NCBI GenBank assembly: GCA_014729335.1
Contig: WJKC01000057.1
Location: forward strand, 1-34,022
From: an archaeon
GTDB taxonomy: Archaea; Nanobdellota; Nanobdellia; WJKC01
Length of the DNA: 34,022 nt
Reading direction: 5' to 3'
Shown here: one piece after another, positions 8,980 to 24,819 of the stretch
Layout of the letters: each line of letters opens with the position of its first letter
Position numbering within the stretch: the stretch's first letter is position 1
Position numbers and translations under genes: made by a program
The notes under the pieces: generated by a model
Databases searched by the model: none
Told to the model about the DNA's origin: nothing
Seen by the model: only the letters and a program-made list of their open reading frames with translations

Positions 8980-9246
8980 ATGAGGCTTGAAGAACAAGTG
9001 GTTAAGGAGCGTGAAAGAGCCATTCTAGCGTTTAAGGAGCTAAAAGTCAATGACTTACCGGGCGCTAGGGACTTGTACGAGCTGGCTAAAGCGTACTATG
9101 ACGACGCCCTGCACTTCTATGATAAAGAAAAACTGTTGGAGGCTTTTGAGTTATTCGCCTATGTCTGGGGCTTGCTGGACGCCGGCGCCCGATTAGGCTT
9201 GTTTGACCCCGGTGCTGCGCGGCGACACTACAAGATTGAACAATAA
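8980..9246 (+). CDS. DUF357-family small archaeal protein
   Basis: AKAYYDDALHF...AF..FAYVWGLLDAGARLG pattern. Confidence 0.88.
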   Translation: MRLEEQVVKERERAILAFKELKVNDLPGARDLYELAKAYYDDALHFYDKEKLLEAFELFAYVWGLLDAGARLGLFDPGAARRHYKIEQ

Positions 9247-9325
9247 CTTTTTAAATCATTCAAAGGGGCTGTCGCCCCTCTTGACTCCTCTTCTATTTTT
9301 TTTATCAATAACTTTTTAAATCATT
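9241..9325. repeat. 20-bp exact direct repeat flanking a 45-bp hairpin insert
   Basis: CAATAACTTTTTAAATCATT at 9241-9260 and 9306-9325; insert contains AGGGGC-TGTC-GCCCCT. Confidence 0.9.
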
Positions 9326-9345
9326 GAGCGTTCTCTTCTCTGTTA

Positions 9346-9504
9346 ATGAGCGAGAATTGCATCTCATGCAGTAAGAATATTAGTTCAATTGACAACAGCG
9401 TTATCTTTGACTGCCCTGAGTGCGGCGAGGCAATTGTTAGGTGCGGCGAGTGCCGGCGCCAAGGAATTAATTATAAATGCAAGTGCGGTTTCAAGGGGTG
9501 GTGA
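9346..9504 (+). CDS. DUF1610-type double zinc-ribbon small protein
   Basis: Not in ORF track. MSENCISCSKNISSIDNSVIFDCPECGEAIVRCGECRRQGINYKCKCGFKGW; four Cys pairs; typical position upstream of aEF-1beta. Confidence 0.92.
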   Translation: MSENCISCSKNISSIDNSVIFDCPECGEAIVRCGECRRQGINYKCKCGFKGW

Positions 9505-9507
9505 GGG

Positions 9508-9771
9508 TTGTCCAACGTTATCATGACCATTAGGGTAATGCCAAAAGGTTTAGAAGTGAATCTTGACAAGTTAAAGAAAAAGATTATTGAAAAATTAAAA
9601 GAAGTTGTTGAAGGAGAAGTTGGCTTTAAAAAACAACCAATCGCTTTCGGCCTTAACGCTCTTGACTTAACACTAATAGTGCCAGAGGACAAGGGGTCAC
9701 TGGTTGAAGAGACATTATCAGGTATAAAGGGCGTCCAGACAGTGAATGTTCAGAGCGTCAGCCTAGTCTAA
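9508..9771 (+). CDS. ef1b: Translation elongation factor aEF-1beta
   Basis: IRVMP...PIAFGLNAL...VEE.LS.IKGVQ motifs; TTG start with GGTGAGG SD-like sequence. Confidence 0.93.
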   Translation: MSNVIMTIRVMPKGLEVNLDKLKKKIIEKLKEVVEGEVGFKKQPIAFGLNALDLTLIVPEDKGSLVEETLSGIKGVQTVNVQSVSLV

Positions 9772-10129
9772 GAATAACTGCTTTACTATCAGGGAATATT
9801 CCCTCCTTCTTGCAGATTTTTTTAAAACCATAATCTTCCAGCATCCCTATCCGCTCCTCATCACCCTCCTTCTCAATAACTGCTAGCGGTTCCCCTGCCC
9901 GCCTGATTATTGACTTTAGTATCAGTGAGTGCTCTGGCCTGAGATGCCAGTGGGTTAACTCATTAATACCAGCTAACCGTCTGACTATGACAAAGCCCTT
10001 AACCCCGTTATCCTCAACAACAATGGTTGTTAAAGCATTCTTTAAAACTGTTTCAAGCACGTTCCGGCTGACACCGCTTAAAGCGCTGATAACTGTTAAG
10101 TCACCAGTCCTGAGCTCGCGCGTTATCAT
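9758..10129 (-). CDS. Degenerate GNAT/RimI-like protein
   Basis: N-terminal R.L..GDL, V.EDNGVKGF, C-terminal YGFKK; lacks the R/QxxGxG acetyl-CoA loop. Confidence 0.6.
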   Translation of the reverse strand: MITRELRTGDLTVISALSGVSRNVLETVLKNALTTIVVEDNGVKGFVIVRRLAGINELTHWHLRPEHSLILKSIIRRAGEPLAVIEKEGDEERIGMLEDYGFKKICKKEGIFPDSKAVILRLG

Positions 10130-10165
10130 AAATACTTATAACCGCGAAGAGGTTATAAATTATTC

Positions 10166-11062
10166 GTGTTAAAACGAGTGGTGAGGGATATTGAGACCTT
10201 GAAGATTCAAGGCGCATCTAACGTGGCGCGCGCCGGTCTGAAAGCACTGGACCACGTTGTGAGGCGGTCAATGGCTGATTCAAAAAAGGAGTTAGTTAAA
10301 GAGTTAAAAGCTGCCAGCAAGAAACTGGTTAACGCCCGGGAGACCGAGCCAATGCTCCGGAACGCTGTCAGGTACATCTTTTGGAAGGTTGCTGATATTA
10401 GTGTTGATAATTATAAAGCCAAGACCCGTGAGATAATTAACGGGTTATACGGCACGGTTAATGACGCTAAGAAGAAAGTGTTTGAGATAGGGGCTAACGT
10501 TATCAAGGACAGCGACCGAGTCTTAACTCACTGTCATTCGAGCAGCGTCATGGGCATTATCAAAGCAGCCAAGCCCCGAGAGGTTATCTGCACTGAGTCA
10601 AGACCCAAGTACCAAGGCAGGCTGACTGCTAAGGAGCTAGTGAAGAAGGGTATTAAGACCACCATGATTGTTGACAGCTCAGTGGCTAATCACGTCAGGA
10701 GTGTTGACGCGGTACTGATTGGCTGCGACGCCATCACCCCTAACAAGGTGATTAATAAGATTGGCTCTTACGGTATTAGCCTCTTATGCGAGAAGTACGA
10801 TGTCCCATTATACGTCTGCTCCACAAGTTATAAGTTTGACCCTGAATCAATTATTGGCAAGGGAGTGGTGGTTGAGCAGCGAAGCCCCAAGGAGGTCTGG
10901 CGCTTCCCGCCCAAGGGCTTGAAGATTCTAAACCCTGCTTTTGACTTTGTTGACTATGATAACATTTATTCCTTCATTAACGAGCTGGGATTATTCAGCC
11001 CTGACTCGCTTTTCATCACGTTGAAGGATAGTTATGAATGGATGTTTGAGAAGGTCAGGTAA
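10166..11062 (+). CDS. e2b2: Ribose-1,5-bisphosphate isomerase (eIF2B alpha/beta/delta family)
   Basis: KIQGA, RETEP.LRN, THCHSS (catalytic Cys), TESRP..QG, GCDAI (catalytic Asp), NKIGS, NPAFD; adjacent to AMP phosphorylase. Confidence 0.92.
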   Translation: MLKRVVRDIETLKIQGASNVARAGLKALDHVVRRSMADSKKELVKELKAASKKLVNARETEPMLRNAVRYIFWKVADISVDNYKAKTREIINGLYGTVNDAKKKVFEIGANVIKDSDRVLTHCHSSSVMGIIKAAKPREVICTESRPKYQGRLTAKELVKKGIKTTMIVDSSVANHVRSVDAVLIGCDAITPNKVINKIGSYGISLLCEKYDVPLYVCSTSYKFDPESIIGKGVVVEQRSPKEVWRFPPKGLKILNPAFDFVDYDNIYSFINELGLFSPDSLFITLKDSYEWMFEKVR

Positions 11063-11095
11063 AGATTATTAAGCATTCATTCTATCCTTTTACTC

Positions 11096-12583
11096 ATGCG
11101 TTTCAAGGTTAAGAAACTAAACATTTCCGGCGGCAGCCACTTAATAGTGGTTATGAACGAGGTGACTGCCGGGCTGGAGGGCGTCCACGCAAGCAGCAGG
11201 GTTAAGTTATCTAATCATAAGAAGAGCATTATCAGCGTTGTTGACATAGCTGACAAGGAAGTGTTAGGGAGGTACGAGCTCGGATTATTCGACGAGGTGG
11301 TTGAAGCCCTTGGGGTTAAAGCCGGCGACGAGATAGAGGTTAACCCCGTGTCCCAGCCCCCGAGCGTTAATTACATTAAGAAGAAGCTTGACGGCTTAGA
11401 ATTAAGGCCTAACGAGATTAAGGAGATTATCGGCGACGTGGTTAGCAATGAATTATCACAAGTTGAGATGAGCGCGTTCGTCACCGCCACTTACACCCGC
11501 GAGTTAACAATGGATGAGACTTACCACTTAACCAAGAGCGTTATTGAGACAGGTCACAAGGTTAGTTTTGGCAAAGGGATTATTGCTGACAAGCACTGCG
11601 TTGGCGGCATCTCAGGCAACCGGACCACCCTTATCATTATACCAATCATTGCCAGTCTTGGTTTAAAGATTCCTAAGACCAGCAGCCGAAGCATCACCAG
11701 CCCGGCTGGCACGGCTGACACCATGGAAGTGTTAGCCCCTGTCGAGTTGTCATTAAAAAAGATTAAGAAGGTGGTTAAGAAAGCAGGCGGCTGTGTTGTC
11801 TGGGGCGGGGCTATGAACCTGGCAGCAGCTGATGACAAGCTTATCAGCGTCCGCCACCCATTAGCTCTTGACCCGTTGGGTTTAATGCTTGCCAGCATAA
11901 TGGCTAAGAAGAAAGCAGCTGGCAGCACTCACGTCATAATTGATATACCATTGGGCAAGGGAGCTAAGACTAAGAGTATTGGCGAGGCCAAGTACCTGGG
12001 CAGGCAGTTTGAAGAGCTTGGTCAGCGACTAGGTATGAAGATTAAGGTCTTAATAACTGACGGCAACAAGCCTATTGGCAAGGGCATTGGACCGGTTTTA
12101 GAGGCTCGTGACGTGTTATGGATACTTGAGCGCGACTCCAGGGGGCCGGTTGACCTTCGTGAGAAGAGTTTGTACCTGGCAGGCGAGTTGTTGGAGTTAA
12201 CCGGTAAGGCTAACCCTGGCGAGGGTCTGGGCATGGCTACCCGGGCGCTTGACAGCGGCGCGGCTTTAAAGAAGTTTAAGGAGATTATCAAGCTTCAAGG
12301 AGGCAAGCCTGTCTCGCCTGATAAGTTAGAACCAGGCAAGCACTCGTTTGAAGTGAAGGCGCCTAGGGGCGGTATTATTAGGTTAATTAATGATGACTTG
12401 ATTTCAAGGATTGCCCGCAGGGCTGGGGCGCCGGTTGATAAAGGCGCCGGCATCTATTTGTATAAGAACGTTGATGACTACGTTGAGAAAGAGGGCGTGG
12501 TGATGACCATCTACGCTGAGAATAAGCGTTTGCTTAAAGAAGCCAGCAAGTTAGTGTCAGAGGACTTATTTAAGATTAAGTAG
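11096..12583 (+). CDS. deoA: AMP phosphorylase (thymidine phosphorylase family)
   Basis: DKHCVGG.SGNRTT, IPKTSSRSITSPAGTADTMEVL, WGGAMNLAAADD, GAP.DKGAGI; extra N-terminal domain typical of AMP phosphorylase. Confidence 0.95.
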   Translation: MRFKVKKLNISGGSHLIVVMNEVTAGLEGVHASSRVKLSNHKKSIISVVDIADKEVLGRYELGLFDEVVEALGVKAGDEIEVNPVSQPPSVNYIKKKLDGLELRPNEIKEIIGDVVSNELSQVEMSAFVTATYTRELTMDETYHLTKSVIETGHKVSFGKGIIADKHCVGGISGNRTTLIIIPIIASLGLKIPKTSSRSITSPAGTADTMEVLAPVELSLKKIKKVVKKAGGCVVWGGAMNLAAADDKLISVRHPLALDPLGLMLASIMAKKKAAGSTHVIIDIPLGKGAKTKSIGEAKYLGRQFEELGQRLGMKIKVLITDGNKPIGKGIGPVLEARDVLWILERDSRGPVDLREKSLYLAGELLELTGKANPGEGLGMATRALDSGAALKKFKEIIKLQGGKPVSPDKLEPGKHSFEVKAPRGGIIRLINDDLISRIARRAGAPVDKGAGIYLYKNVDDYVEKEGVVMTIYAENKRLLKEASKLVSEDLFKIK

Positions 12584-12988
12584 GAAGTCCATGACTTTTT
12601 GATGCAGTGAAGTTGCAAAGTAATCTTTTACTTCCTCAGGCTTAACCCATTTAATCTCAGTGAACTTCTCACCAGCCCTCTCCTCACCACTAGTTGCTGT
12701 GCAGTAATAATAGATTGATAAGAACTCCCTTTTCTCAGGGTAAGTCTTGGCAAACACTATCTTATCAACCCTTACTTCCAGCCCAGTCTTCTTTTTAATC
12801 TCTAGTTTCAAGTAGTCTTCCACTTCTTGTTCATAGCCTGGCCTGCCCCCGGGAAAACACCAAGTTAATTCTTTTATGTAAGGGTCTTTTTCCCGCCTGC
12901 CAATAAGCACCTTCTTAGTCTCAGGGTTATAGATTATCCCTAAAGCATTAACAAGGAATACTCCTCTGTTAAATTCACTCCAGTTCAT
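12566..12988 (-). CDS. NUDIX-fold protein with altered Nudix box
   Basis: VLIGRR, WCFPGG, box GGRPGYEQEVEDYLKLEIKKKTGL, E.KWV. Confidence 0.85.
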   Translation of the reverse strand: MNWSEFNRGVFLVNALGIIYNPETKKVLIGRREKDPYIKELTWCFPGGRPGYEQEVEDYLKLEIKKKTGLEVRVDKIVFAKTYPEKREFLSIYYYCTATSGEERAGEKFTEIKWVKPEEVKDYFATSLHQKVMDFLLNLK

Positions 12989-13042
12989 TAATTAATTATA
13001 AGCAGGTAAACTTTTTAAATGGTTATTAATTTTCTGTTTCTC

Positions 13043-13297
13043 ATGGGTCGGATTAGGACTGTGGAGATCAGGAGCATAACTGATAAAATATTAGGTAAAT
13101 ACAGCTTGGATTCATTCTCTGACAAGTTCAGGGATAACAAGGAGCGGCTTAAGTCACTAGCCGAGGAGTTCCCGAGCAAGAAGGTTCTTAACCGGGTGGC
13201 CGGCAATATCACCCGATTGTTTAAAGATAAGCGCGCTGAGATGAAAGAATTATTAGAAGGCGGTCCTCAAGAGATTGAAGATGAATCTTTATCCTAA
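13043..13297 (+). CDS. rps17e: 30S ribosomal protein S17e
   Basis: MGRIRT..I, F..NK, SKKVLNRVAGNIT; ATG at 13043. Confidence 0.92.
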   Translation: MGRIRTVEIRSITDKILGKYSLDSFSDKFRDNKERLKSLAEEFPSKKVLNRVAGNITRLFKDKRAEMKELLEGGPQEIEDESLS

Positions 13298-13407
13298 CAC
13301 TCGCTGAATGGTTTGTCCTAAAACTTATAAACACTGCTTGTTATTACTGAAAACATGACTAGCTATCAACGTGATGGTCCCTGGTAGAATAGTTAGTCTT
13401 ACTAAGA

Positions 13408-13620
13408 GTGATTTACCCTGGTTTTATTCTTAACTGCCTAGTTGACTTTATCGGCTCCACTCAGTACCGGGCTGTTAAGGAGATTTCAAGAAGACACGAC
13501 CTTGCAACTTCAACTATTAAGTACGTTTTTCGTAAACTAGTAGCTCAGGGTTTAATTTTTTATGACAGCGCCATCACGTTCACTCTTAAAGGAATGAGGG
13601 AGGTGTTATGTGATGAGTGA
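13408..13620 (+). CDS. Small winged-helix DNA-binding protein (start uncertain)
   Basis: KEISRRHDLATSTIKYVFRKLVAQGLI...FTLKG wHTH pattern. Confidence 0.65.
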   Translation: MIYPGFILNCLVDFIGSTQYRAVKEISRRHDLATSTIKYVFRKLVAQGLIFYDSAITFTLKGMREVLCDE

Positions 13621-13993
13621 AGAAGTTGCTGAGTTCCTGAAAGAGTTCTACCCCGGTCTTTATGGTAAGATGGCTTCAGAGGCTTTTATCAGAGAACCAG
13701 CTAAGTATAATACAAAGGTCTTAGGCAGGCAAGTGGTTAAGGGAGTTATGTGCTATGAGGATACCAGCTTCAACGATGTTAGTATCAAGTTATTAGCAGG
13801 CGACTTGCAGTCTCTCAGGCGGTTAATTGAGCCGGTGAAGCCCTGCCGGTTGTCAATCAAGGTGCCTGAGTCATTAAGTGATTACGTTAATAACTTATCA
13901 ACTATTGGCTTTAAATTAATTGCTAAGGATTACAGTAACAGCCTGAACGAATATTTATTAGTGCTGAGCTACTCAGGTGATACTCATGGCTGA
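13613..13993 (+). CDS. Hypothetical protein, possible degenerate GNAT fold
   Basis: GGAGGTG SD upstream; C-terminal LSTIGFKLI pattern. Confidence 0.6.
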   Translation: MSEEVAEFLKEFYPGLYGKMASEAFIREPAKYNTKVLGRQVVKGVMCYEDTSFNDVSIKLLAGDLQSLRRLIEPVKPCRLSIKVPESLSDYVNNLSTIGFKLIAKDYSNSLNEYLLVLSYSGDTHG

Positions 13994-14066
13994 TAATGTT
14001 ATTGACGCTTTTGGCACCGAAGGGGCTTTGCCCCTCTCGACACCCCTTAGAGGTGGTGTTAAGTGA
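13986..14066 (+). other. 26-codon mini-ORF made of a duplicated trpS 5' end plus hairpin insert, coupled to the trpS start
   Basis: AGGTGA SD, ATG at 13986, MADNVIDAFGTEGALPLSTPLRGGVK*; its TGA overlaps the trpS GTG (GTGA). Confidence 0.6.
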
Positions 14067-14098
14067 CTGAGGGTAATGTTATTGACGCTTTTGGCACC
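13994..14098. repeat. 25-bp exact direct repeat flanking a 55-bp hairpin-containing insert
   Basis: TAATGTTATTGACGCTTTTGGCACC at 13994-14018 and 14074-14098; insert contains AGGGGC-TTT-GCCCCT. Confidence 0.92.
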
Positions 14099-15136
14099 AG
14101 CGAGATTCGTGATTATGACAAGTTATTCAGGGAGTTCGGGGTTGAGGACTTCACCAAGCTGGATGCGCCTGACCCATTAACTACCATGCGGCGCGGCATA
14201 GTGTTCGGCCACCGGGATTTGAAGCCGGTGTTAAAAGCCATGAAGAAAGGAGAGAAGTTCGCGGTTATGAGCGGCATCAAGCCGTCTAATTACTTTCATA
14301 TTGGGTCTAAGATGGTGGTTGACGAGATAGTTTATTTTCAGAATCACGGCGGCTTAGTTTATTACACCTTTGCTGATGTTGAGACACTCGCTGATAACGG
14401 CTTATCATTCAAGGAGTCAAGAGAGTACGCCAGGGACAACCTATTAGACTTAGCTGCTCTTGGTCTTGACCTGGATAAGGCTAAGATCTACCTGCAGTCA
14501 GAGGAGCCGACAGTCCTGAAACAAGCTCACGTCTACGCCCGTAACGTTACTAATAACATGCTAGAGGCAATCTACGGCGAGCACCCTGTGAGGATTTACA
14601 TGGCAGTCCTTGTGCAAGTAGCTGACATACTATTACCCCAATTGGAGCACGGACCAATGCCTGTGGTGGTGCCAGTGGGTTTTGACCAGGACCCTCACAT
14701 AAGATTGACGCGCGACATCGCAAGGAAGCATAAGTTAATGCCGCCTGCTTCAACTTATCATAAGTTCATCTGCTCATTACTAGGAGTGGAGAGGAAGATG
14801 AGCAAACGGGAGCCTCAGGGAGTGATATACCTTAACGAGGACCCTAAAAAAGCTCGTAAGAAGATAATGAAGTACGCTTACAGCGGGGGCAAGCCGACTG
14901 TTGAAGAGCACCGGGAAAAAGGCGGCGACCCAAGCGTTGACGTTTCATACCAGTACCTCACTTACTTGATGAGTGATGATGAGAAGTTGAAGAAGATACG
15001 GAGGGATTATGAGAGAGGTGACTTACTCAGCGGCGACTTGAAAAAGATACTGGCAGACCATGTTGAGGAGTTCTTAATAAACCATCAGAAGAAGCGTGAG
15101 AAGGCAGGGAAGAAGGTTGATAAAATACTAGCTTAG
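14063..15136 (+). CDS. trpS: Tryptophan--tRNA ligase (archaeal type)
   Basis: RRG..FGHRD, SGIKPS..FHIGS (HIGH), Q.ADIL.PQ, VPVG.DQDPHIRLTRD, KMSK, AYSGG. Confidence 0.96.
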   Translation: MTEGNVIDAFGTSEIRDYDKLFREFGVEDFTKLDAPDPLTTMRRGIVFGHRDLKPVLKAMKKGEKFAVMSGIKPSNYFHIGSKMVVDEIVYFQNHGGLVYYTFADVETLADNGLSFKESREYARDNLLDLAALGLDLDKAKIYLQSEEPTVLKQAHVYARNVTNNMLEAIYGEHPVRIYMAVLVQVADILLPQLEHGPMPVVVPVGFDQDPHIRLTRDIARKHKLMPPASTYHKFICSLLGVERKMSKREPQGVIYLNEDPKKARKKIMKYAYSGGKPTVEEHREKGGDPSVDVSYQYLTYLMSDDEKLKKIRRDYERGDLLSGDLKKILADHVEEFLINHQKKREKAGKKVDKILA

Positions 15137-16303
15137 TATCTTATCTCTTATTTTTTCAACACTCCGTCTTAATTTATCCTCTTTAACCCCCAGGGTGTTC
15201 TCACCGCCGCGTATCACTTCCTTTCCTTTAACGTAGACGCTTTTAATTGCGTTAACATTCATTAATTTAGCTAGCAACTCGCTCACGGTCTTGAAAGGCT
15301 TTAACTCTTTTAAATCTATTAGTGAGAAGCTCGCATCCATTCCCGGCGCTAACTGCTGATGCGTCAGGCAGTAGGCTTGTTCAATAGTGATGCCTGTCTT
15401 CTTATGAGACTCCCACGCCTCTTTTAACACCGAGGCGCTAGGGTTCCATGCAAAGATGTCAGTTCCAATCCTGACTTGGACATTATTCCTTAACATGTCT
15501 TTTATTGGAGCCTGATTGCCTGTTATTGAGTGGTTGCTCGTGGGGCAGTGAAGCACTGGCACGTCGTGCCGGCTTAGTCTTAGAACATCCTTTGAGTCAG
15601 CGTAGGTGCAGTGAGCTAGCCTTACGTCATGGTCCAGCATCCCAATATCATGTAAGTACTCAATAGTCCGCTTGCCGGTTAATTCCTTCATGTGCCTTAC
15701 CTCTTCCATTGTCTCGCAAGCGTGCATGTGGATTGGCAGTTCATGCTCCCTGGCAAACGCGAGCCCGTCCCTCATTAACTGAGGCGTGCACTCATACTCG
15801 TTAGCCAGTCCTAGTATTATCCTCTTTCCGTACTCCTTCTTTAGTTTTAATGTCTTGTTTAATTGTTTCTTAGGGTTGCCTGCCTCTTTATGAGCGTCCT
15901 TGACTGCTATGCACTCAGTATAACTCATCCCTGTTTTTTTAAAGGCTTTAATCACCGGCTCAGGGTCCATGTCCATCGCGTCCACGTGAGTCACCCCGTT
16001 CTTCAGGTACTCAAGGCAGGCTAGCATTGATGACTTGTAAGCATCACTCTTTGTTCTCTTCTTATGCATCTTGAAGCCAATTGAGTCAAAATAGTCATAT
16101 TTATTCATGCCAAGAGCTGTCCCCTTCATCAGCCTGCTTGCCAGGTGGGCGTGGGCGTTTCTTAAGCCCGGCACTAATAATAAGCCTGAACCGTTAAACC
16201 CGCTTGTTAAACCCTTTTTAATGTAAAGGATTTTATCCTCAAAGTATAAGTCCCGCTTAACTAGTCTGCCTTTAACTAGTAGTGTTAGGTTGTTGATTAT
16301 CAT
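15128..16303 (-). CDS. Amidohydrolase-family metal-dependent deaminase (MTA/SAH deaminase, SsnA-like)
   Basis: PGL.NAHAH, HMHACE, LAHC, HCPTSN, IGTD metal-ligand motifs. Confidence 0.88.
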   Translation of the reverse strand: MIINNLTLLVKGRLVKRDLYFEDKILYIKKGLTSGFNGSGLLLVPGLRNAHAHLASRLMKGTALGMNKYDYFDSIGFKMHKKRTKSDAYKSSMLACLEYLKNGVTHVDAMDMDPEPVIKAFKKTGMSYTECIAVKDAHKEAGNPKKQLNKTLKLKKEYGKRIILGLANEYECTPQLMRDGLAFAREHELPIHMHACETMEEVRHMKELTGKRTIEYLHDIGMLDHDVRLAHCTYADSKDVLRLSRHDVPVLHCPTSNHSITGNQAPIKDMLRNNVQVRIGTDIFAWNPSASVLKEAWESHKKTGITIEQAYCLTHQQLAPGMDASFSLIDLKELKPFKTVSELLAKLMNVNAIKSVYVKGKEVIRGGENTLGVKEDKLRRSVEKIRDKILS

Positions 16304-16345
16304 TTCTTAGTAATGTTTTTAACGCTGCTAGTCCTTATTAGAGTT

Positions 16346-16579
16346 ATGAAGTTAAAGGACTTCTGCCTCTGGGCTAAGACGCCTGGAATGCAGGTTAACA
16401 TGTCAGTGTTATTAATGGTTATATCCTTCTCAGGTTTTATTTACACTTACTACGCGTCTCTTTACTGGCCCTTAACCCTTTCATCGCCGATAATGGGCAC
16501 TTTCCTAGCACTAGGATTATTCTACCTTGGCTATACCTTAATCCTGTCTTACTTCATGATAAAGAATTATTATTTTTGA
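16346..16579 (+). CDS. Small two-TM membrane protein
   Basis: Two hydrophobic stretches; ATG at 16346 about 25 nt after TTTTTAA. Confidence 0.6.
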   Translation: MKLKDFCLWAKTPGMQVNMSVLLMVISFSGFIYTYYASLYWPLTLSSPIMGTFLALGLFYLGYTLILSYFMIKNYYF

Positions 16580-16791: not shown

Positions 16792-16804
16792 ATTAGATGA
16801 TTAA

Positions 16805-17572
16805 TTAGGAGTTGCTCTTTAAGTACTTTTTTAGTTTTTGCTGCCGGCTCTTATCAACTATATTTCTGTTTGGCGGCTCCACACGAGCAAACTTGTAACC
16901 CCAGTCCTTTAGCATTCCCTCAGCGTTCTTGCTCATGCCAGGAGCCGCGATGTAGCCAACAACTTTTTTTACTCCTTTAACTTTTTTTATTTTCTCAACG
17001 TACCGCCTTAGCTGCTGCACTGCGTTCAACCCGGCGGTCACTCGCTTGCACTCAATTATTACCAGTGTTCCCTTGCCGTTATGACCCATCACGTCAATGA
17101 ACCCGTACTTTGTCTGCTCTTCAAGACTCACCGGCTTGAAGTCATCACTGATAAGGTACGGCTTCTCATAAATCATTCGAGCCATATCAGCCTCGCTCCC
17201 AACAATTGACACCTCCTCAGCATCGCTTAGCTCGGCTGAGACTAACAGGTTAACTTTTGAGATGTTAATCATCATGTGCTCGCGAGGGTTAATGGATTCA
17301 GCAGTGATTACTAACGCGTCACCAGTTTTGAATTTAATACTCGCCCCTTCCTTAATCCAGTTAATAGGGTTCCTGCCAGTGGGCTTATGAACCAGCAGGG
17401 TATTGTCCTGCTTGATTGTCACTACGCGCTCACCCCGCTCCAGTTTAGAGTAAGCCCTTCCCTCGTACTTGACCATGCACTCGCAGTACAAAGTGATTAA
17501 TTCCCGGCGCCTTAACGCGTGCTCTAACACGTTCTTGGCTGTTTCAAAATCAGGTTCAACATGACTTCTCAT
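16805..17572 (-). CDS. nucS: Endonuclease NucS/EndoMS
   Basis: C.V.YEGRA.S.L..GER..IKQD..LLVH...P.NW, GSEADM, GFID, IECKR, AVQQLRRYV, C-terminal PIP-like QQKLKKY. Confidence 0.95.
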   Translation of the reverse strand: MRSHVEPDFETAKNVLEHALRRRELITLYCECMVKYEGRAYSKLERGERVVTIKQDNTLLVHKPTGRNPINWIKEGASIKFKTGDALVITAESINPREHMMINISKVNLLVSAELSDAEEVSIVGSEADMARMIYEKPYLISDDFKPVSLEEQTKYGFIDVMGHNGKGTLVIIECKRVTAGLNAVQQLRRYVEKIKKVKGVKKVVGYIAAPGMSKNAEGMLKDWGYKFARVEPPNRNIVDKSRQQKLKKYLKSNS

Positions 17573-17767
17573 ATTAAGGTTAAATTATTATTAACTTGTT
17601 AATAATTCTTCTTCAAAACAGGAACCCTTTATTTCCTCTGGAGTTGTTCTGGAAGGCTTTTCTGAGCCTCCTAAAAAGGTTTAATTATTTTCAATATAGA
17701 AAAGAATTGAGTGTTTTTGTTTCCTTTAGAAACCTTTATTAACTCTTATTGGCAATTAATCTTTGAT
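17573..17767. promoter_or_regulatory. Candidate replication origin: ORB-like box with AT-rich flanks, between divergent promoters
   Basis: Minus strand 17643-17625 reads CTCCAGAGGAAATAAAGGG (ORB-like with G-string); weaker copy TTCTAAAGGAAACAAAA at about 17731-17715; AT-rich tracts at 17573-17610 and 17673-17710. Confidence 0.55.
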
Positions 17768-18154
17768 ATGAGTGAGTTTGGTATTGGTTTTCATCATGAG
17801 CTGCCTTTAACAGATAATGACCTTGTTTACTGGCTGGCTGAGGATGAGAAGTTATACTTTGCCCGTCGAAGTGATTATAATAGCACTGTTAAGGAGGTAT
17901 TAGTTAATGATTTGAGGGCTGATATGATTAACTTGTCACGCTTGCTTGTGAAGCCTGAGCTGGAGTTTAAGTTAAGAACAACAAATGAACTGGTTGGTTT
18001 TAGAAAGGCTAATAGCATTACTTACATGATTTTTGAAGGGGCGAGGGAGTTCTCTGCTGATAATATTCATTACTCTCTTGGCATCTTTAAGGGTTATTAT
18101 GAATTGTACTTTAAGGGTGATTATAAGAGTGATATATTGCCTCTTGTTAAGTGA
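17768..18154 (+). CDS. Hypothetical protein
   Basis: ATG at 17768 about 26 nt after TTTATTAA; the ORF-track start (17711) lies upstream of that TATA. Confidence 0.65.
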   Translation: MSEFGIGFHHELPLTDNDLVYWLAEDEKLYFARRSDYNSTVKEVLVNDLRADMINLSRLLVKPELEFKLRTTNELVGFRKANSITYMIFEGAREFSADNIHYSLGIFKGYYELYFKGDYKSDILPLVK

Positions 18155-21017
18155 TTAGTATTCCAGGCTTGCCAGGCATGGCTTGCCCTGCTTTCTTTTC
18201 CTTTGAGTTCTCCGCGTCTATTACCTCCATCTTGGCTCCGAACTCTTTTTCAAGGTAGTCCTTTGTCTGCACTATTGTCTCCAGCTCCCGGCTCTTTTCT
18301 ATTATTGTTTTTGGAATCCTTGACACGTCCTTGACTAGTGATTTTATTATCCTGGTTGCTTCCTTGCCGTGCTCCTTGACTGTCTTAACCTTCATTACTT
18401 CTTTGATTAACTTCTTGAAGTCTCGCTTGTTCTTTGACTTAACCACTTTTTTTATCAGCTCGTACTTCCAGTCATGGCTGATGAATAATGTAATCTTCCT
18501 CGGCTCTTTCTTAACCAGTTCAACTACCTCGTTGATATCGCTTATTAGGTTAATGATTATTTTTTCATAATTCTCTATTCCGGGCTTAATCATTGACTTC
18601 TTAATCTTTGGGTATTTTTTTAGCGACACGAACTCTTTGCTTCCTAGCTCCTCGTTTATCTCCTCGCATAAGTGGGGGATTATCGGCTCCAGGGCTATTA
18701 TCCATTTTGGAATAATGGTTCTTAAAACCGAATTGTAGTCTTTTACCGAGACCCTGTTGCGGTAGTAGTTAACCTCGTTTAGGAATTTGAAGAATATGTT
18801 AACAGCGTAGGCGCGGACCTCCATTTCTTCTCCCTGCTTCTTAGCATCTTTTAGCCTTGAGTAGAACCTTGAAACAATCCATTTGTCAATGTAGTCAAGC
18901 TTCTTCTTCGGCTTTGCCTTGGACGCTGCCATGCATAAGTTATAGAAGCTTTTGAGTTTATTCTTTACACTGGCGACTTCTTTTTCACGCCAGTCAGCTT
19001 GGGTGTCAATTTCGGTTGAACTGGTAACGTATAATCGGTAAAGGTCGGCTGAGTACTTCCTTGGGATGTCAATTAATGGTATAACGTTGCCTCTTGACTT
19101 GCTCATCTTAACCCCTTCTCTGCCGGTTAAGAACTCGTTAAAAGTCATTGCTTTTGGCCAGTGTTTCTTAGGGAAGATTAGGACGTGGTGCATGATGAAG
19201 AATATTAAGTGGTTGCCGATGTGGCCTGGTGCTGTGTGTCGCTGGTCATTAGGGTACCAGTAAGTGAATGACTCGCGCATTTTTTTTAAGACATTGACAG
19301 GCACCTTTGTCTTTTTTGCTAAAGACTTAACCCCTCCTTTTCCTAGGTAGACATAGTCAAATAATTCAGGGGTTAACTGTTTGGGTTTCACTTTATGTTT
19401 TCTTATTAGGTGGGCGATGGTGTAGAAGCTCATGTAGATTGTTGAGTCGCTCAGGCTCTCAATCATCCATTGTTTGTCAAACGGGAAGTGGGTGCCTAAT
19501 CCTCTTCTGCGCGCGCAGGGTCGCTTCTCAAGCCAGTCAAGCACGTCAAGGAACTGCTTGCGGTACTTCTCAGGGTAAATCCTCATAGAGGTCAGCAATC
19601 CATGCGCGTCTTTTTTCCACTTCTTGCTCGTGTAGTCAATGAACCACTGGTTGTTCAGCACAGCGATTATTACTTTGCCTCCGCAACGGCACTCGGCTTT
19701 GCGCGTGGTCTCGTAAAAGGTTAGTGCTTTGTCATCTTTTTTCAGCTTGTTTATCACTTGGTCTTTTATCTCTTTGATTCTTAACCCGCTGAACTCGCCG
19801 CACTTGTCATTAAGAACGCCTTTGTAGTACTCGTCCTTGTACACCTTCTTGGTTGCCTGCTCTATTAAGTCCTTGTCAGCCAGGCGCTTAACACCTAACT
19901 CCTTGCAGGCTTTAATTGCAGGCGCCTTGTCATAACCCTCTATGTCAATGATTGTCACCGGCTTTATTGATTTTACTTCTTTGGCTTTTAAGCCGTACTT
20001 TTTAATTTTCTGCTCACTCCCCTGCAGGTCTTTTAACCCTATGTAGTCCAGCGGGGCGTGAGCAGGCACTGAATATACTATTCCTGAGGCGGTGTCAGGG
20101 TCAACGAACTCGCCTGGCAGTACTGCCACGTTAGTGCCTATTGGCGTGTCAACGTGTTTGCCAATTAACTCCTTGCCAACGAATTCACTAATTTTTTTAA
20201 TGCCTTTTAGCTGGTACTCTGCTTTATCATAAGCCTCAGCGCTCATGATTAGTGTTTCATCCTTGTACTCTGCTTTAATATAAGTCTCGTCAGGGTTAAC
20301 CCATAAGTTGGTGATGCCGTAGATTGTCTCAGGTCTCAGGCTTGAGCCGATTAAGTATTCATCATCTAGTTTGAATTTTATTGCGGTGAATTCATTAATC
20401 TTTACTTTATCAGTGTCACCGTCCTTGATGTCATCCTCGCCAACCGCGTTCTCACAGTTAACGCAATAAGTGACTGGGTGGTCGCCTTTGGTGATGGCTT
20501 TCTTTTTCATTAACTTCTCGTACTGCCACTCGATGAACTTGTTATAGATTGGCTCGCCAGTATTGAACTTCATGCGCCAGTCAATGCTTAACCCGATGCT
20601 GTTAAAGTCATTGCTTATGACGCTGGCAAAATAGTCAGCCACGTTCTGCGGCTTGGTGAATGACTTTATTATCTTATCAACCTTTTTCTTGTTTGACTCG
20701 TATAATGAGACATAGTCATGGAATAGTTTAGTATATTTTTTATCCTTGTTTTTTATCCGCTCGCTGATAGCTAGTATCGGCGTGCCTGATATGTGGAAAG
20801 CCATTGGCCATAAGACGTTGTAGCCCATTTTCCGCTTGAACCTGGCAACGAAGTCAGCCACGCAGTAAGTCCTGCCGTGGCCCACGTGTAATGGCCCTGA
20901 AGTATAGGGGTAGGGCACGGTGAAGAAGAACTTCTTGCCTTTGCCAGTGCCTGGCTGGAATACTTTATTCTGTCTCCACTTGCTCTGCCATTTTTGCTCT
21001 ATTTTCTGCAGATTCAT
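18147..21017 (-). CDS. leuS: Leucine--tRNA ligase (archaeal/eukaryotic type)
   Basis: PYPYTSGPLHVGHGRTY, WPMAFHISGTPI, SSLRPET, VYSVPAHAP.DY editing domain, IESLSDSTIYM, KMSKSRGN, AMPGKPGI. Confidence 0.97.
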   Translation of the reverse strand: MNLQKIEQKWQSKWRQNKVFQPGTGKGKKFFFTVPYPYTSGPLHVGHGRTYCVADFVARFKRKMGYNVLWPMAFHISGTPILAISERIKNKDKKYTKLFHDYVSLYESNKKKVDKIIKSFTKPQNVADYFASVISNDFNSIGLSIDWRMKFNTGEPIYNKFIEWQYEKLMKKKAITKGDHPVTYCVNCENAVGEDDIKDGDTDKVKINEFTAIKFKLDDEYLIGSSLRPETIYGITNLWVNPDETYIKAEYKDETLIMSAEAYDKAEYQLKGIKKISEFVGKELIGKHVDTPIGTNVAVLPGEFVDPDTASGIVYSVPAHAPLDYIGLKDLQGSEQKIKKYGLKAKEVKSIKPVTIIDIEGYDKAPAIKACKELGVKRLADKDLIEQATKKVYKDEYYKGVLNDKCGEFSGLRIKEIKDQVINKLKKDDKALTFYETTRKAECRCGGKVIIAVLNNQWFIDYTSKKWKKDAHGLLTSMRIYPEKYRKQFLDVLDWLEKRPCARRRGLGTHFPFDKQWMIESLSDSTIYMSFYTIAHLIRKHKVKPKQLTPELFDYVYLGKGGVKSLAKKTKVPVNVLKKMRESFTYWYPNDQRHTAPGHIGNHLIFFIMHHVLIFPKKHWPKAMTFNEFLTGREGVKMSKSRGNVIPLIDIPRKYSADLYRLYVTSSTEIDTQADWREKEVASVKNKLKSFYNLCMAASKAKPKKKLDYIDKWIVSRFYSRLKDAKKQGEEMEVRAYAVNIFFKFLNEVNYYRNRVSVKDYNSVLRTIIPKWIIALEPIIPHLCEEINEELGSKEFVSLKKYPKIKKSMIKPGIENYEKIIINLISDINEVVELVKKEPRKITLFISHDWKYELIKKVVKSKNKRDFKKLIKEVMKVKTVKEHGKEATRIIKSLVKDVSRIPKTIIEKSRELETIVQTKDYLEKEFGAKMEVIDAENSKEKKAGQAMPGKPGILIT

Positions 21018-21250
21018 TATTTAACCTCAATCCCTGCTTTATTTATTATTTTTTCTAAATCATTAAAACTGCTTATTATTCCAATCATCTTAGCAGTAGT
21101 GCTTTCATCTTTTCCTATGCGGGGGTACTGGTATACCTCTTTGTTTTTGATTACGTAGGCATTAGCTGTTAGTTTCAGCACGTACGTTTCTGCAGGGTCC
21201 ATTTTCTCCGGCAGTTTTTCATAATCAAGGTGTATTGCGTTGAATGCCAT
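21017..21250 (-). CDS. Small hypothetical protein
   Basis: 77-aa ORF whose stop overlaps the leuS start by 1 nt. Confidence 0.6.
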   Translation of the reverse strand: MAFNAIHLDYEKLPEKMDPAETYVLKLTANAYVIKNKEVYQYPRIGKDESTTAKMIGIISSFNDLEKIINKAGIEVK

Positions 21251-21254
21251 AAGA

Positions 21255-21620
21255 TTAGTGAACCCTTTTTATACTCCATTCAATTTTTTCTTTTTTCTTA
21301 ATCATCTTTGTTATCTGTTTCTCCAGGAAAATCTCAGAGTCAGTGAAAGGCACTTTGAAGTTATTATTTCTCTCCCAGAAATAAGCAGGGTTATTATCAA
21401 CGCACTTGAATACTATGTAACTGCCTATTGTCTCAGCACTTATTCTTGGATTATAATCCTTAACCCTTATGATTCCATTGTAATCAACGTCTTTTTCATA
21501 ACACTTTATGATGTCCTGTATCATTTCTTTATGGTTTTGATAGAATTTCATCCAGGGCTTGTTAGGCTTGCTTGTATGATTAGGTATTTCATATACAGTT
21601 TTGCTTGTAGTTATCACCAT
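21255..21620 (-). CDS. Hypothetical protein
   Basis: Perfect GGAGGTGA SD (21635-21628) 7 nt before ATG at 21620. Confidence 0.7.
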   Translation of the reverse strand: MVITTSKTVYEIPNHTSKPNKPWMKFYQNHKEMIQDIIKCYEKDVDYNGIIRVKDYNPRISAETIGSYIVFKCVDNNPAYFWERNNNFKVPFTDSEIFLEKQITKMIKKKEKIEWSIKRVH

Positions 21621-21665
21621 GACTAATTCACCTCCAGTAATCAATTTTTTTTTTTTAAATAGAAG

Positions 21666-21714
21666 TGAAGCTAGTGAATTTATTACTGCAACCGCAACAA
21701 TAAACTTAGCTTCA
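21666..21714 (-). promoter_or_regulatory. Long imperfect hairpin, probable structured 5' leader or small RNA
   Basis: TGAAGCTA/TAGCTTCA, TTTATT/AATAAA and TGC-AACC-GCA nested stems; TTTATAAA at 21741-21748 with purine-rich BRE-like sequence on the minus strand. Confidence 0.5.
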
Positions 21715-21771
21715 TTATTTTACCCTTAAAAGACAATTCTTTTATAAACCTTTTCATTAAGTATTTCTGGA

Positions 21772-22959
21772 ATGGCTTTTAGTTTTATGCAGTTCTTGAA
21801 TGAGCGGATTGTTCATTTTAAGAAGATGGTTCCTTTATCAATCACCTTTTTTATTTACCTGCTGGGCTGGGGTTTTGTTTCGCCAATATTTAATATCAGG
21901 GTTAATGACGTGACCGGCTCTTTATCACTTTCAGGTATTATTTTTTCATTAGTTGGGTTGGTTGGTGTGTTCTCTGACCCCTTGGTGGGTTTGTTCTGTG
22001 ATCGGTATAATATTAAGAAGATGATACAGTTTAGCCTAGTCCTTTACTCAATCGTCTTCCTTATGTATTCAATAGCTGGTTCTTTTGAGTTCCTGTTCAT
22101 CACTAGGTTAATGCACGCTTTTGCCTTGTCGCTGCTTTGGACTAGCGGCTGGACTCTTACAAGGAGGTTAACTAAGGGCAGGTACGCTCAGGAGGAGATT
22201 AGTGCTTGGTCAAGTGTTCAGAACATGGCTTACATTCTGGGGCCGATCATTGGCGGTTTGATAATAACTATTTATTCTTGGCAGAGTGTTTTCTATCTTG
22301 GGTCTGTTTTTTCAATAATTAGTTTATTATATTTCACCTTTAAGGTTAAGATGCCGGTTAACCATAATTCCTGCCCTAAGACTTTCAAGGAGCAGTGGCA
22401 TAGTTTCTTTAAGGACCCTTCAGTGGCTTATAGGCTGATAGCTCTTAACCTTGTTTTATTCATTGCTTCAACATCTTTTTATTCATTCCTGCCAATACAC
22501 TTGGTTGACACGGGCGTTAGTATTGAGGGTGTGGCAATAATACTGGCTTTATCAACTACTGTTCCTTACATCTTGTTCCCAATAGTTATTGGCGTGGTGG
22601 CTGATAATTACGGCCGCAAGATACCAACGCTTTTTGGATTATTATTCATGGCACTGGGTTTGATATTCTTCACATGGATTAACACTTTCACTCAGTTCCT
22701 TTTCTACACCTTTGTTATCTATACTGGTGTAGTGTTTATTCAGATGAGTATTAACGCTGAATTAAATGATATGGTTTCAGAAAAAGAGGTTGGTGGTTTC
22801 ACTGGGATTTTTGAAGGATTTAAGGATTTTGGGATACTAATTGGTCCATTAGTTGTGGGTTTCATTTCAGCAGTCACTAGCATCACTTTTTCATTCTTAA
22901 TCCTAGGAGCGGTATGCACTTGTTCAATAATAGTTTTAAAAGGCTTTAAGAACTTCTAG
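21772..22959 (+). CDS. MFS transporter
   Basis: About 12 TM; GLFCDRYNIK and GVVADNYGRK motif A copies; GPIIGG. Confidence 0.93.
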   Translation: MAFSFMQFLNERIVHFKKMVPLSITFFIYLLGWGFVSPIFNIRVNDVTGSLSLSGIIFSLVGLVGVFSDPLVGLFCDRYNIKKMIQFSLVLYSIVFLMYSIAGSFEFLFITRLMHAFALSLLWTSGWTLTRRLTKGRYAQEEISAWSSVQNMAYILGPIIGGLIITIYSWQSVFYLGSVFSIISLLYFTFKVKMPVNHNSCPKTFKEQWHSFFKDPSVAYRLIALNLVLFIASTSFYSFLPIHLVDTGVSIEGVAIILALSTTVPYILFPIVIGVVADNYGRKIPTLFGLLFMALGLIFFTWINTFTQFLFYTFVIYTGVVFIQMSINAELNDMVSEKEVGGFTGIFEGFKDFGILIGPLVVGFISAVTSITFSFLILGAVCTCSIIVLKGFKNF

Positions 22960-22999
22960 TAAGTATTAAAAACAGGTTAATGCTTTTTTTTATCTTAAA

Positions 23000-23074
23000 G
23001 GGCCCGTAGCCTAGTCTGGATAGGGCGACAGGCTTCTAACCTGTAGGTCGGGGGTTCAAATCCCCCCGGGCTCA
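23000..23074 (+). tRNA. tRNA-Arg(TCT)
   Basis: Acceptor GGGCCCG/CGGGCTC, anticodon arm ACAGG-CTTCTAA-CCTGT, T arm GGGGG-TTCAAAT-CCCCC; CCA not encoded. Confidence 0.96.
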
Positions 23075-23090
23075 TACCTGAACTGCGGGG

Positions 23091-23111
23091 GGGGGACTTC
23101 GTCCCCCTTTT
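23091..23111 (+). terminator. GC hairpin plus T-run after tRNA-Arg (terminator-like, or a relative of the hairpin element)
   Basis: GGGGGAC-TTC-GTCCCCC-TTTT. Confidence 0.5.
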
Positions 23112-23172
23112 GATTTTCATTCATTATTGATAATGTAAAAGTTCTTTGGATAATCAGCTGTTGATGATAGTG

Positions 23173-24351
23173 TTATATGAATTTTTGCAGTATTGTTTGT
23201 TTCTCTCTTATTAGTTTGCTTTTTCTGAGGTCAAAACCTGTTAGTCTTTCAGTATAGGTCCGGGCTTGTTCATAATTGTTGAATTTTTTACTGTTCTGCA
23301 GTGCTTTCCTCACTGCTTCCCGCACGACCCAGACTCCTAGCGGCATGTAGTAGTCCTTTGTTATCTGCCTGATGACTAGGGCGCTGGCTTGAAGGTTGTT
23401 GGACGCGAGCCATTCAGTGATTGGCAGCCTGCTCGCGTAGTAGCCGCCCCCTGTGTTCTCAGCGTATTTTTTCCGACCGTTGAATTGTTCGTAATCAGTC
23501 ATTACTTGTGTTTCATTGCTGCTGAACACTGCCCCGGGCATCCACATCTCGATTAACTCGTAGCTCCAGAACCGGGGCATTAATAGGATTGTGAAGATGT
23601 TGCCAAAGTACTTGCCGTGGAATACCTGGTAGTAATCAATCACCTCGTTGTTTTTTAGTTTTTTAATATAATTCTTTCCAAGCGTGTCGTCAGTGGCTGT
23701 GATTGACCACCGCGTGGGTACTAGTTTTCGGTTTTTATCAACGCCTAGTGTGCCCGCGCTTAGGATGCTGCTTATCTCGTACTCTTCGAGTTCTTTTTGT
23801 TTTAGTATTATCATTGCCTCGCCTGCTTTTAAGTCAGTGTCGTAGTGTACTTTCTGGACCGCTTTTTTTATGCGCGGGTGGTCGTTGACTCTTAACTCTT
23901 TGACCTCGGCTGCTGGGCCGTAGGGTTGTGAGTGGATGTTGTAGTTGACTAATATTTTTGGCGCTTTTTTTAGTGATACATCAATGCTTAAGGGCTTGCT
24001 TGAGAGGGCTGATGACTGGACGTACTCGTTGAATCCTTTAACTTCTTTGATTTTAACCTTGTTCCTTGAGTTAACCAGGCTTGAACGGTAAGTCATGACG
24101 TCAATGATTGATGATTTATTATTAACCCACTCCCTGGGTCCTTTATTAGTTGTTGACTCGTGGGGTGAGAGCAGCCCGGCGTACACTTTTGGGTAGCCGT
24201 GCCAGCCGATGAACACGCCCGCTGTCTCTGATTTGAATTCTTTTTTTGGTTTAAGGGATTTCTTAATGTCTAGTTTAGCCAGCACCGGGCATCTTGGCAG
24301 CCCGCATTTTAGTCTGCCTTTGCATTTAACGCAGTCAAATCCTATCTTCAT
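23173..24351 (-). CDS. nreA: Nre-family DNA repair protein
   Basis: CVKCKGRLKCGLPRCP, VFIG..GYPKV, LVPTRWSITATDD, GGYYASRL, PLGVWVVRE, C-terminal PIP QTILQKF. Confidence 0.93.
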   Translation of the reverse strand: MKIGFDCVKCKGRLKCGLPRCPVLAKLDIKKSLKPKKEFKSETAGVFIGWHGYPKVYAGLLSPHESTTNKGPREWVNNKSSIIDVMTYRSSLVNSRNKVKIKEVKGFNEYVQSSALSSKPLSIDVSLKKAPKILVNYNIHSQPYGPAAEVKELRVNDHPRIKKAVQKVHYDTDLKAGEAMIILKQKELEEYEISSILSAGTLGVDKNRKLVPTRWSITATDDTLGKNYIKKLKNNEVIDYYQVFHGKYFGNIFTILLMPRFWSYELIEMWMPGAVFSSNETQVMTDYEQFNGRKKYAENTGGGYYASRLPITEWLASNNLQASALVIRQITKDYYMPLGVWVVREAVRKALQNSKKFNNYEQARTYTERLTGFDLRKSKLIREKQTILQKFI

Positions 24352-24478
24352 TAATATTAGATTGATTGTTGGGTGTATATAATACTAAGGGTTGGTTGTC
24401 CTTTAATACCCAATACTCTTAAATACTCATTGTACCTTAGAAAACTTTATAAGTGGTCGTGGAGGGATTTGTTTTATC

Positions 24479-24589
24479 ATGAGTGACGAGCTTGAGTTAA
24501 TAGAGGATGTTTCTGAGGATGATTCTGTTTACTCGCTTGAGGAAGAGGATGATGAGACGACTGAGACTATTAGGGCTTATATTGGTTGA
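24479..24589 (+). CDS. 36-aa highly acidic microprotein
   Basis: Not in ORF track. MSDELELIEDVSEDDSVYSLEEEDDETTETIRAYIG; GAAAAC-TTTATAAG BRE/TATA at about 24440-24453. Confidence 0.65.
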   Translation: MSDELELIEDVSEDDSVYSLEEEDDETTETIRAYIG

Positions 24590-24633
24590 ATAGATTACTT
24601 TATAAAATACTATCACTATTTATTTTTTATAGC

Positions 24634-24757
24634 GGGGTCATAGTCTAGTCTGGCAGGACAACCGGCTCCAGACGATTCTTCGTATTGGAGCGCTGATTCA
24701 ATAATTTGGAGATGACGAAGATACCGGTTAACCGGGGTTCGAATCCCTGTGACCCCA
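24634..24757 (+). tRNA. tRNA-Trp(CCA) with 51-nt intron at canonical 37/38 (24672-24722)
   Basis: Acceptor GGGGTCA/TGACCCC, anticodon stem ACCGG/CCGGT around CTCCAG^A, T arm CGGGG-TTCGAAT-CCCTG; TTTTATAAAA promoter upstream. Confidence 0.93.
24672..24722 (+). ncRNA. Intron-encoded box C/D guide RNA predicted to direct Cm34 of tRNA-Trp
   Basis: Guide TGGAGC complementary to GCTCCA, D-box CTGA (24693-24696), C-like ATGACGA (24712-24718); the D+5 rule lands on C34. Confidence 0.7.
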
Positions 24758-24819
24758 TTTCACTGGGTGCCAAGAGTTCTCTTCTTTTGAGCACCTGTGA
24801 CCCCATTTCACTGGGTGCC
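24746..24819. repeat. 26-bp exact direct repeat of the tRNA-Trp 3' end and trailer flanking a 22-bp insert
   Basis: CCTGTGACCCCATTTCACTGGGTGCC at 24746-24771 and 24794-24819; insert AAGAGTTCTCTTCTTTTGAGCA. Confidence 0.92.

Follow-up and report, generated by a model that had tools for sequence, protein, structure and literature searches.

Which process places a short insert between two exact copies of the surrounding sequence, at three sites of a single archaeal contig? The question is raised by a stretch of 34,022 nucleotides (nt), here called the window, which is the entire contig C54 (WJKC01000057.1) of the archaeal bin G000 (GCA_014729335.1; 847 kb in 65 contigs, 41.8% G+C). A first-pass annotation made from its sequence alone had listed exact direct repeats of 20, 25 and 26 nt flanking short inserts at positions 9241-9325 (locus 1), 13994-14098 (locus 2) and 24746-24819 (locus 3), and had proposed a non-autonomous element of about 35 nt whose insertion duplicates, and thus preserves, the target signal. 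All three repeats are found at these positions, against none in ten shuffled genomes, and they are indeed copies of local sequence, namely a stop codon with a TATA-like box, the 5' end of trpS and the 3' end of the tRNA-Trp gene. The proposed element is supported by further copies in the genome and by empty sites in relatives. The loci are real insertions relative to an ancestral empty site, each with a long direct target duplication of variable length. All features of the window described here lie on the forward strand.

Filled and empty sites

The order to which G000 belongs comprises four genomes only, G000 and its relatives G001, G002 and G003. G001 represents the sister genus; the completeness of G000 is 85% and that of G001 is 96%. 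At locus 2 the insertion has replaced the start of the gene coding the tryptophan-tRNA ligase TrpRS (trpS, 14063-15136; TIGR00233, 235.6 bits against a cut-off of 176.75). The first copy of the 25-nt repeat (13994-14018) stands immediately 3' of the TGA of an open reading frame (ORF) at 13610-13993. The second copy (14074-14098) now provides TrpRS codons 5-12, the repeated sequence corresponding to codons 3-11 of the ancestral gene. The insert between them (14019-14073) is composed of a hairpin of the family named F1 and CTCGACACCCC, followed by a tail that supplies both the sequence GAGGTG (14050-14055) and, 7 nt after it, the current GTG start codon (14063). It scores 52.7 bits against R1, the covariance model of F1, and its folding z-score is -1.89. 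The old ATG now opens an upstream ORF of 26 codons (13986-14066; translation MADNVIDAFGTEGALPLSTPLRGGVK up to its stop codon), a remnant of the ancestral start that reads through the first repeat copy and the hairpin. Its TGA overlaps the new GTG in the sequence GTGA, an arrangement that would couple translation of the upstream ORF and trpS.

The trpS site is empty in all three relatives, where the repeat sequence occurs once, the insert is missing and the trpS ATG overlaps the stop codon of the upstream gene. Locus 2 is therefore an insertion with a 25-nt duplication that split trpS after codon 11. The insertion supplied the gene with a different start codon and ribosome-binding site, and made an upstream ORF of the former start. 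The insert tail resembles the ancestral ribosome-binding site and start region, a resemblance that may be due to convergence.

Locus 1 lies at the border between a DUF357 gene (8980-9246; PF04010, E-value 1.2e-14) and a HVO_2753-type zinc-finger gene. The first copy of its 20-nt repeat, TTTTTAAAT (9241-9260), encloses the TAA stop codon of the former (9244-9246) and a TATA-like box; in the second copy (9306-9325) this box is positioned 28 nt upstream of the ATG of the latter (9346). The repeat extends to 25 nt at 92% identity. The insert (9261-9305; 47.6 bits against R1, folding z-score of -3.25) carries an F1 hairpin of 9 base pairs (bp) with one bulged C (9261-9283), the tail GACTCC and a T-rich run ending in eight T residues. 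Inserts 1 and 2 are homologous, as claimed, by their R1 scores, and both fold as had been drawn. The orthologous site in G001 has one repeat copy and no insert; only this relative is comparable here, G002 and G003 having a different downstream neighbour.

The comparison between the two genera covers the 17 junctions whose flanks adjoin in both G000 and G001 (10 of the 20 G000 loci examined, whose flanks are not adjacent in G001, and one unclear G001 locus were left out). Seven junctions, loci 1 and 2 among them, are filled in G000 and empty in G001, and another seven are filled in G001 and empty in G000. Empty junctions hold a single repeat copy and no insert. Both genera carry the same insert at two junctions, the C42 gene pair and the tRNA-Trp gene, where the inserts are orthologous and have diverged in sequence. 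The remaining junction, a convergent gene pair on C46, holds inserts of different families in the two genera, with repeats shifted by 4-5 nt.

These data bear on whether the repeats could be assembly artefacts. All the genomes are metagenome bins and several arrays are found at contig ends, as such an origin would have it. Yet the repeat-insert-repeat unit of 50-120 nt fits within a read pair, four separately assembled genomes show this footprint, and two filled sites are orthologous between genera yet diverged in sequence, so that an artefactual origin is barely credible.

Hairpin inserts and their genomic footprint

The F1 element carried by loci 1 and 2 measures about 35 nt. Its hairpin, N[G/A]AAGGGGC-loop-GCCCCT(C)T[C/T]N', is followed by (G)AC-ACCCC and a T-rich tail, the linear tail motif being CTYGAC-ACCCC. 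Copies continue after the hairpin with (G)AC, either A or T, a run of C and a T-rich tail that varies in length and sequence. A loose regular expression finds 20 matches in G000 and 0 in the reversed genome. R1 was run on 151 genomes sampled from the class and identified 18 copies in G000, eight in G001, four in G003 and one each in G002 and G049, with no match in the remaining 146. Among these 151 genomes F1 is nearly confined to the archaeal family of G000. The inserts correspond to no Rfam family.

In an alignment of 13 F1 copies from two genomes, the 9-bp hairpin with its one bulged C has 98.3% of its cells paired. Six of the pairs never vary, a seventh is interrupted by just one unpaired cell, and the two basal pairs covary (G-C/A-U/G-U and C-G/A-U/G-C; eight double changes). 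The covariation score was reached in none of 500 shuffles, and controls with a slid alignment were 47-58% paired. The F1 hairpin structure is under selection. A reading of the hairpin flanks as a K-turn was dropped, the 5' "GA" being often "AA" and covarying as a Watson-Crick pair.

The genome-wide search for further copies, which had been suggested by the first-pass annotation, showed that exact repeats of 18-55 nt flank 11 of the 18 R1 matches in G000 (10 loci, one of them tandem) and that two more have decayed repeats, one of 21 nt with 2 mismatches and one of about 33 nt. Flanking repeats are also found around F1 copies of G003 (27 and 22 nt) and around the G049 copy (41 nt). The hairpins of the window had been described as reading in the same orientation; this is true of the window, but not of the genome, where copies occur in either orientation. 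Between neighbours of the same direction, four F1 copies are co-directional and five antisense (a hand count, the automatic orientation score for inserts being unreliable and dropped). F1 therefore cannot have a general role as terminator. Other hairpin families in these genomes follow the same plan of hairpin, short spacer, C-run and T-rich tail.

The footprint extends well beyond F1. G000 contains 73 maximal exact direct repeats of at least 16 nt within 220 nt, and none of 10 shuffled genomes contains any; four are in the window, three of them of at least 20 nt. A layout filter was defined by an exact repeat of at least 16 nt and a gap of 15-100 nt folding at -9 kcal/mol or better, protein-repeat clusters being excluded, and was applied to 847 kb of G000, 1.03 Mb of G001 (first part 393 kb) and 362 kb of G002. 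It was passed by 18 of 42 repeat pairs in G000, 15 of 30 in the first part of G001 and 2 of 9 in G002; the whole of G001 yields 31 loci. Folding at -12 kcal/mol or better is seen for 16 of the 18 G000 inserts versus 8.7% of random 50-nt windows.

The duplications are 17-67 nt long with a median of 25 in the 43 filtered loci, and 16-78 nt over all loci seen. The long target duplications proposed initially are thus borne out, the range of 20-26 nt given for them being too narrow. Inserts span 22-90 nt (median 55), or 22-95 nt at the widest, and hold no genes. In almost every case the left repeat stops within 1 nt of the base where pairing of the hairpin begins; on the other side the variable tail precedes the right repeat, and this end of the insert is variable and pyrimidine- or T-rich. 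Similarity beyond the exact repeat is at background (3.8 of 12 matching positions versus 3.0 in controls); degenerate longer duplications were considered and are mostly absent by flank comparison. The summed length of insert and repeat has no in-frame bias (13, 9 and 21 loci for remainders 0, 1 and 2).

The position of the duplications relative to genes was read by eye on ORF-based gene calls, without a gene finder. Roughly 16 of the 18 G000 loci and roughly 21 of the 25 G001 loci have the end of a gene or tRNA within a repeat copy or at most 15 nt from it. The duplicated pieces are a stop codon plus promoter, an overlapping stop and start, overlapping convergent gene ends or tRNA 3' ends; in G003 a tRNA 5' end is duplicated. 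Tandem arrays of repeat plus insert are found at G000 C16, at G000 C62 and at the tRNA-Trp gene of G001. Note that G000 also has tandem duplications of 46-58 nt whose copies are nearly perfect and separated by 1-7 nt (C12:1-122, C53:4460-4575, C27:22820-22930 and C9:7227-7325). At least one of them lies at a contig end, and collapsed arrays or artefacts at the ends of the assembly may account for them.

R1 also matches other genomes. Full-length matches number 15 in a Methanocellales bin (G151; E-values down to 2e-11), two in a Methanoculleus bin (G152) and 24 in a Christensenellales bin (G153); a Nanobdellati bin has five full-length matches with 12-nt repeats. Four Methanocellales copies were inspected by eye: no flanking repeats were seen at any of them, one is among several hairpins in a tRNA-Lys intron of about 170 nt and one is in a 23S rRNA insertion. 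One Methanoculleus copy is next to the 3' half of a tRNA encoded on the other strand and, judged by eye, may occupy a tRNA-intron position, and the RNase P RNA of this bin has extra hairpins (420 nt versus a 288-position model). The G153 matches sit inside a longer GC-rich bacterial repeat with multiple hairpins that has related copies in other bins of gut Clostridia. The R1 module may travel between lineages, since it occurs 15 times in the Methanocellales bin and also in the Methanoculleus bin; common descent, transfer or convergence may each account for the distant matches.

Insertions at tRNA genes

Locus 3 overlaps the gene of tRNA-Trp(CCA), which has a 51-nt intron (24634-24757). The first copy of the 26-nt repeat (24746-24771) comprises the final 12 nt of the tRNA and 14 nt of its trailer, and is separated from the second copy (24794-24819) by a 22-nt insert formed by AAGAGTTCTCTT and CTTTTGAGCA (24772-24793). 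This insert had been taken for a third hairpin. It does not form a stable hairpin in G000, where its folding energy of -2.7 kcal/mol (z = 0.02) is no better than that of shuffles, and it is not a member of the F1 sequence family, with which it has the layout alone in common. Its G001 orthologue, AAGAATCTTTGATTCTT, is a hairpin. The tRNA-Trp gene of G001 has the same layout in the form of a tandem array of a 52-nt unit (repeat plus insert) that runs off one contig onto another; that of G002 has no 3' duplication. Locus 3 is old because it is shared with a second genus.

Hairpins without repeats are also found directly 3' of tRNA-Ser, tRNA-Lys and tRNA-Arg. The hairpin after tRNA-Arg in the window (23080-23115, followed by TTTTGA), which had been grouped with the three loci, is strong (z = -3.35); it has no flanking repeat and no R1 match.

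Further features of tRNA genes were observed in these genomes. The tRNA-Trp intron of the window (24672-24722) has CTGA and GATGA-like boxes, reminiscent of the box C/D guide RNA that other archaea carry in this intron. The tRNA-Trp gene of G002 (on C5) has an apparent second insertion of about 39 nt in the T-arm. Introns of 41-96 nt built of GC hairpins are present in 11 of the 45 tRNA genes identified by ARAGORN in G000 (examples at C3:20220-20376 and C61:11152-11319); an F2-like module is present in the tRNA-Thr intron, and in that of tRNA-Met a hairpin precedes CTCTCGA. Three tRNA-Ala genes of G000 (C21:2417-2508, C27:1022-1095 and C27:18069-18142) have a conserved 54-nt trailer in common, and the C21 gene alone is followed by a second copy of its last 12 nt and 14 nt of trailer, the 12 plus 14 geometry of tRNA-Trp.

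Duplicated tRNA ends invite the view, relevant chiefly to the tRNA-Trp locus, that the repeats are attachment (att) site duplications made by site-specific integrases whose elements were later reduced to a stub. The identical 12 plus 14 geometry at locus 3 and at the C21 tRNA-Ala fits this origin, as do three distinct tyrosine recombinase genes in G000 (C58:2795-4033, C26:3-548 and C30:3-575; identities of 52% and 24%, with two of the genes truncated at a contig end). It is nevertheless very improbable: the repeats, found at dozens of sites, are arbitrary pieces of local sequence with no relation to each other, the inserts measure 22-95 nt, the recombinase genes are on contigs other than that of the window, and empty and filled sites differ just by the insert and one repeat.

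Origin of the insertions and comparison with known systems

No mobilising enzyme had been noticed in the window. This holds for the whole of G000, and for G001, in six-frame whole-genome profile searches whose controls matched in known genomes: none of seven families, reverse transcriptase (PF00078), Cas1 (PF01867), Y1 HUH (PF01797), TnpB (PF07282), DDE_Tnp_1 (PF01609), rve (PF00665) and topoisomerase IB (PF01028), has a match. Action of a topoisomerase IB at CCCTT was rejected, no such gene having been found. In G001, pieces of 1.5 kb at C1:75064-76653 and C1:44131-45763 are bordered by exact repeats of 26 and 29 nt (a gene end and a tRNA-like sequence); as candidates for larger parent elements these cassettes were set aside, each encoding one ORF (495 and 314 amino acids) without Pfam match.

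The loci are probably, though by some distance not certainly, the footprints of small non-autonomous insertion elements moved in trans. DNA would be inserted where the two strands have been cut tens of bases apart, at no fixed distance, and fill-in of the long overhangs would create the duplication. In genomes as compact as these, the surviving insertions would be those that duplicate the overlapping signals of the neighbours on either side. The cutting and joining enzyme would not be among the usual transposases and may be a protein of the host, of a virus or of a symbiotic partner. Slippage and tandem amplification of the repeat-insert-repeat unit may follow, with gain and loss of units, and slippage between the repeats would homogenise them so that the two copies stay identical over long times.

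Several observations weigh against this interpretation. The mechanism is one that we infer, the enzyme not having been found among the families searched, and G000 and G001 are both metagenome bins. Repeats are missing at 5 of the 18 R1 copies of G000, and no convincing motif was found at the repeat edges that form the duplication borders. A donor search found no match to the variable tails elsewhere in G000 beyond the core; the 3' end of the mobile unit is undefined because the tails match nothing else in the genome. At C42 (G001 C1:52399) and at tRNA-Trp the repeat copies are 100% identical within each genome and differ between genomes, and the C42 repeat borders also differ (40 versus 58 nt), which slippage does not explain. 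The site C4:64457-64640 of G001, empty in G000, reads repeat-insert1-repeat-insert2-repeat, with two unrelated inserts and the same 27-nt repeat, much as a mini array with two spacers would look, a layout that random staggered cuts do not predict and that slippage does not explain either.

The missing enzyme gives room to the view that the loci are by-products of host replication or repair, in which template switching or end joining, mending a fork or break at a gene border, re-copies 16-78 nt and captures a nuclease-resistant hairpin as filler, with no dedicated enzyme. The variable duplication length and the lack of a border motif are in line with it, as are the existence of several unrelated hairpin families with the same footprint and the sharp junction at the hairpin foot, a place at which stalled polymerases or structure-specific nucleases would be expected to halt. 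Against it, the tails are not copied from another G000 locus, so that no templated insertion from a visible donor took place; the footprint is frequent in G000 and G001 but rare in G002, which belongs to the same family, a distribution that a burst of an element would produce; and the conserved linear tail motif beside differing hairpins suggests recognition by a specific factor. We consider such a by-product rather unlikely.

Retroposition of a small, stable hairpin RNA that starts at the hairpin foot and finishes at a U-run, such as a tRNA 3' trailer or a terminator fragment, copied at a nick with a second nick at variable distance as in target-primed reverse transcription, would account for several traits. 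Target-primed insertion is typified by long duplications of variable length, the copies have a defined 5' end and mostly a T-run at the tail end, and the repeat-less copies right after tRNA-Ser, tRNA-Lys and tRNA-Arg are where RNase Z would release such an RNA. This explanation is nonetheless improbable: a reverse transcriptase is found neither in G000 (85% complete) nor in G001 (96%), and there is neither a source locus with the same tail nor an A-rich tail.

A broader form of the insertion-element reading is conceivable, and we put it forward only tentatively. Ultra-small archaea might move DNA without transposases, replication, repair or RNA-processing enzymes of the cell, its host or a virus pasting modules of hairpin plus CTYGAC-ACCCC into long-staggered breaks at gene borders and so creating terminators, upstream ORFs, start codons and tRNA trailers.

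If small non-autonomous elements have indeed produced these loci, they show how genomes with hardly any spare DNA and with overlapping signals accept insertions, the insertion copying signals that would otherwise be split. The inserts rewrite gene borders, and their footprint suggests either an insertion chemistry not yet described or host enzymes put to an unusual use. They also mislead annotation through wrong starts, spurious mini-CRISPR calls and contigs broken at arrays.

No description of the F1 element or of its footprint was found in the titles and abstracts of the literature, supplementary files being outside the scope, and at that level 12-mers of the F1 motif returned unrelated eukaryotic primers only. 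Small hairpin repeats at gene edges of a reduced genome bring to mind the Rickettsia palindromic elements, which are tolerated in genes or at their edge; to our knowledge, long target duplications are not a described feature of those elements. [quoted passage not shown] REPs, however, make no duplication and need the REP-associated tyrosine transposase (RAYT, Y1 HUH), whereas duplications accompany 13 of 18 copies here and PF01797 was not found. MITEs are bounded by terminal inverted repeats and make short duplications of one fixed length; the inserts have instead one 5' hairpin and a variable unrelated tail, their ends do not pair in the folds, the duplications reach 16-78 nt, and the parent transposases PF01609 and PF00665 are not found in G000 or G001.

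Short interspersed elements (SINEs) and other target-primed retroposons are similar in being non-autonomous with one defined end and in having variable, sometimes long duplications. They differ in the reverse transcriptase, not found in G000 or G001, and in the tail, which here is T-rich and not A-rich; we know of no SINE-type elements in archaea. Off-target Cas1-Cas2 integration ("neo-CRISPR") and casposons also give a repeat-insert-repeat layout with inserts of 30-60 nt, and one locus has repeat-insert-repeat-insert-repeat. Cas1-type integration works with a ruler and gives a fixed duplication length; here the length is variable, Cas1 (PF01867) was not found and the inserts form one homologous family, not random spacers. 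From integrase att duplications the loci are set apart by inserts without genes, by repeats unrelated to each other and by recombinases that reside on other contigs.

The last comparison is with the IS1549/IS1634 insertion sequences, a family preferentially present in Euryarchaeota whose duplications are reported to be variable in length (8-514 bp) and to have no mechanistic model (PMC2266710). The likeness concerns the footprint only, namely long variable target duplications. IS1634-type elements are autonomous insertion sequences of 1.5-2 kb with a DDE transposase, while the inserts described here are 22-95 nt long, carry a single hairpin at one end and lack terminal inverted repeats, and neither DDE_Tnp_1 nor rve has a match in G000 or G001. 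Among the published footprints found in these searches, that of IS1549/IS1634 is the nearest.

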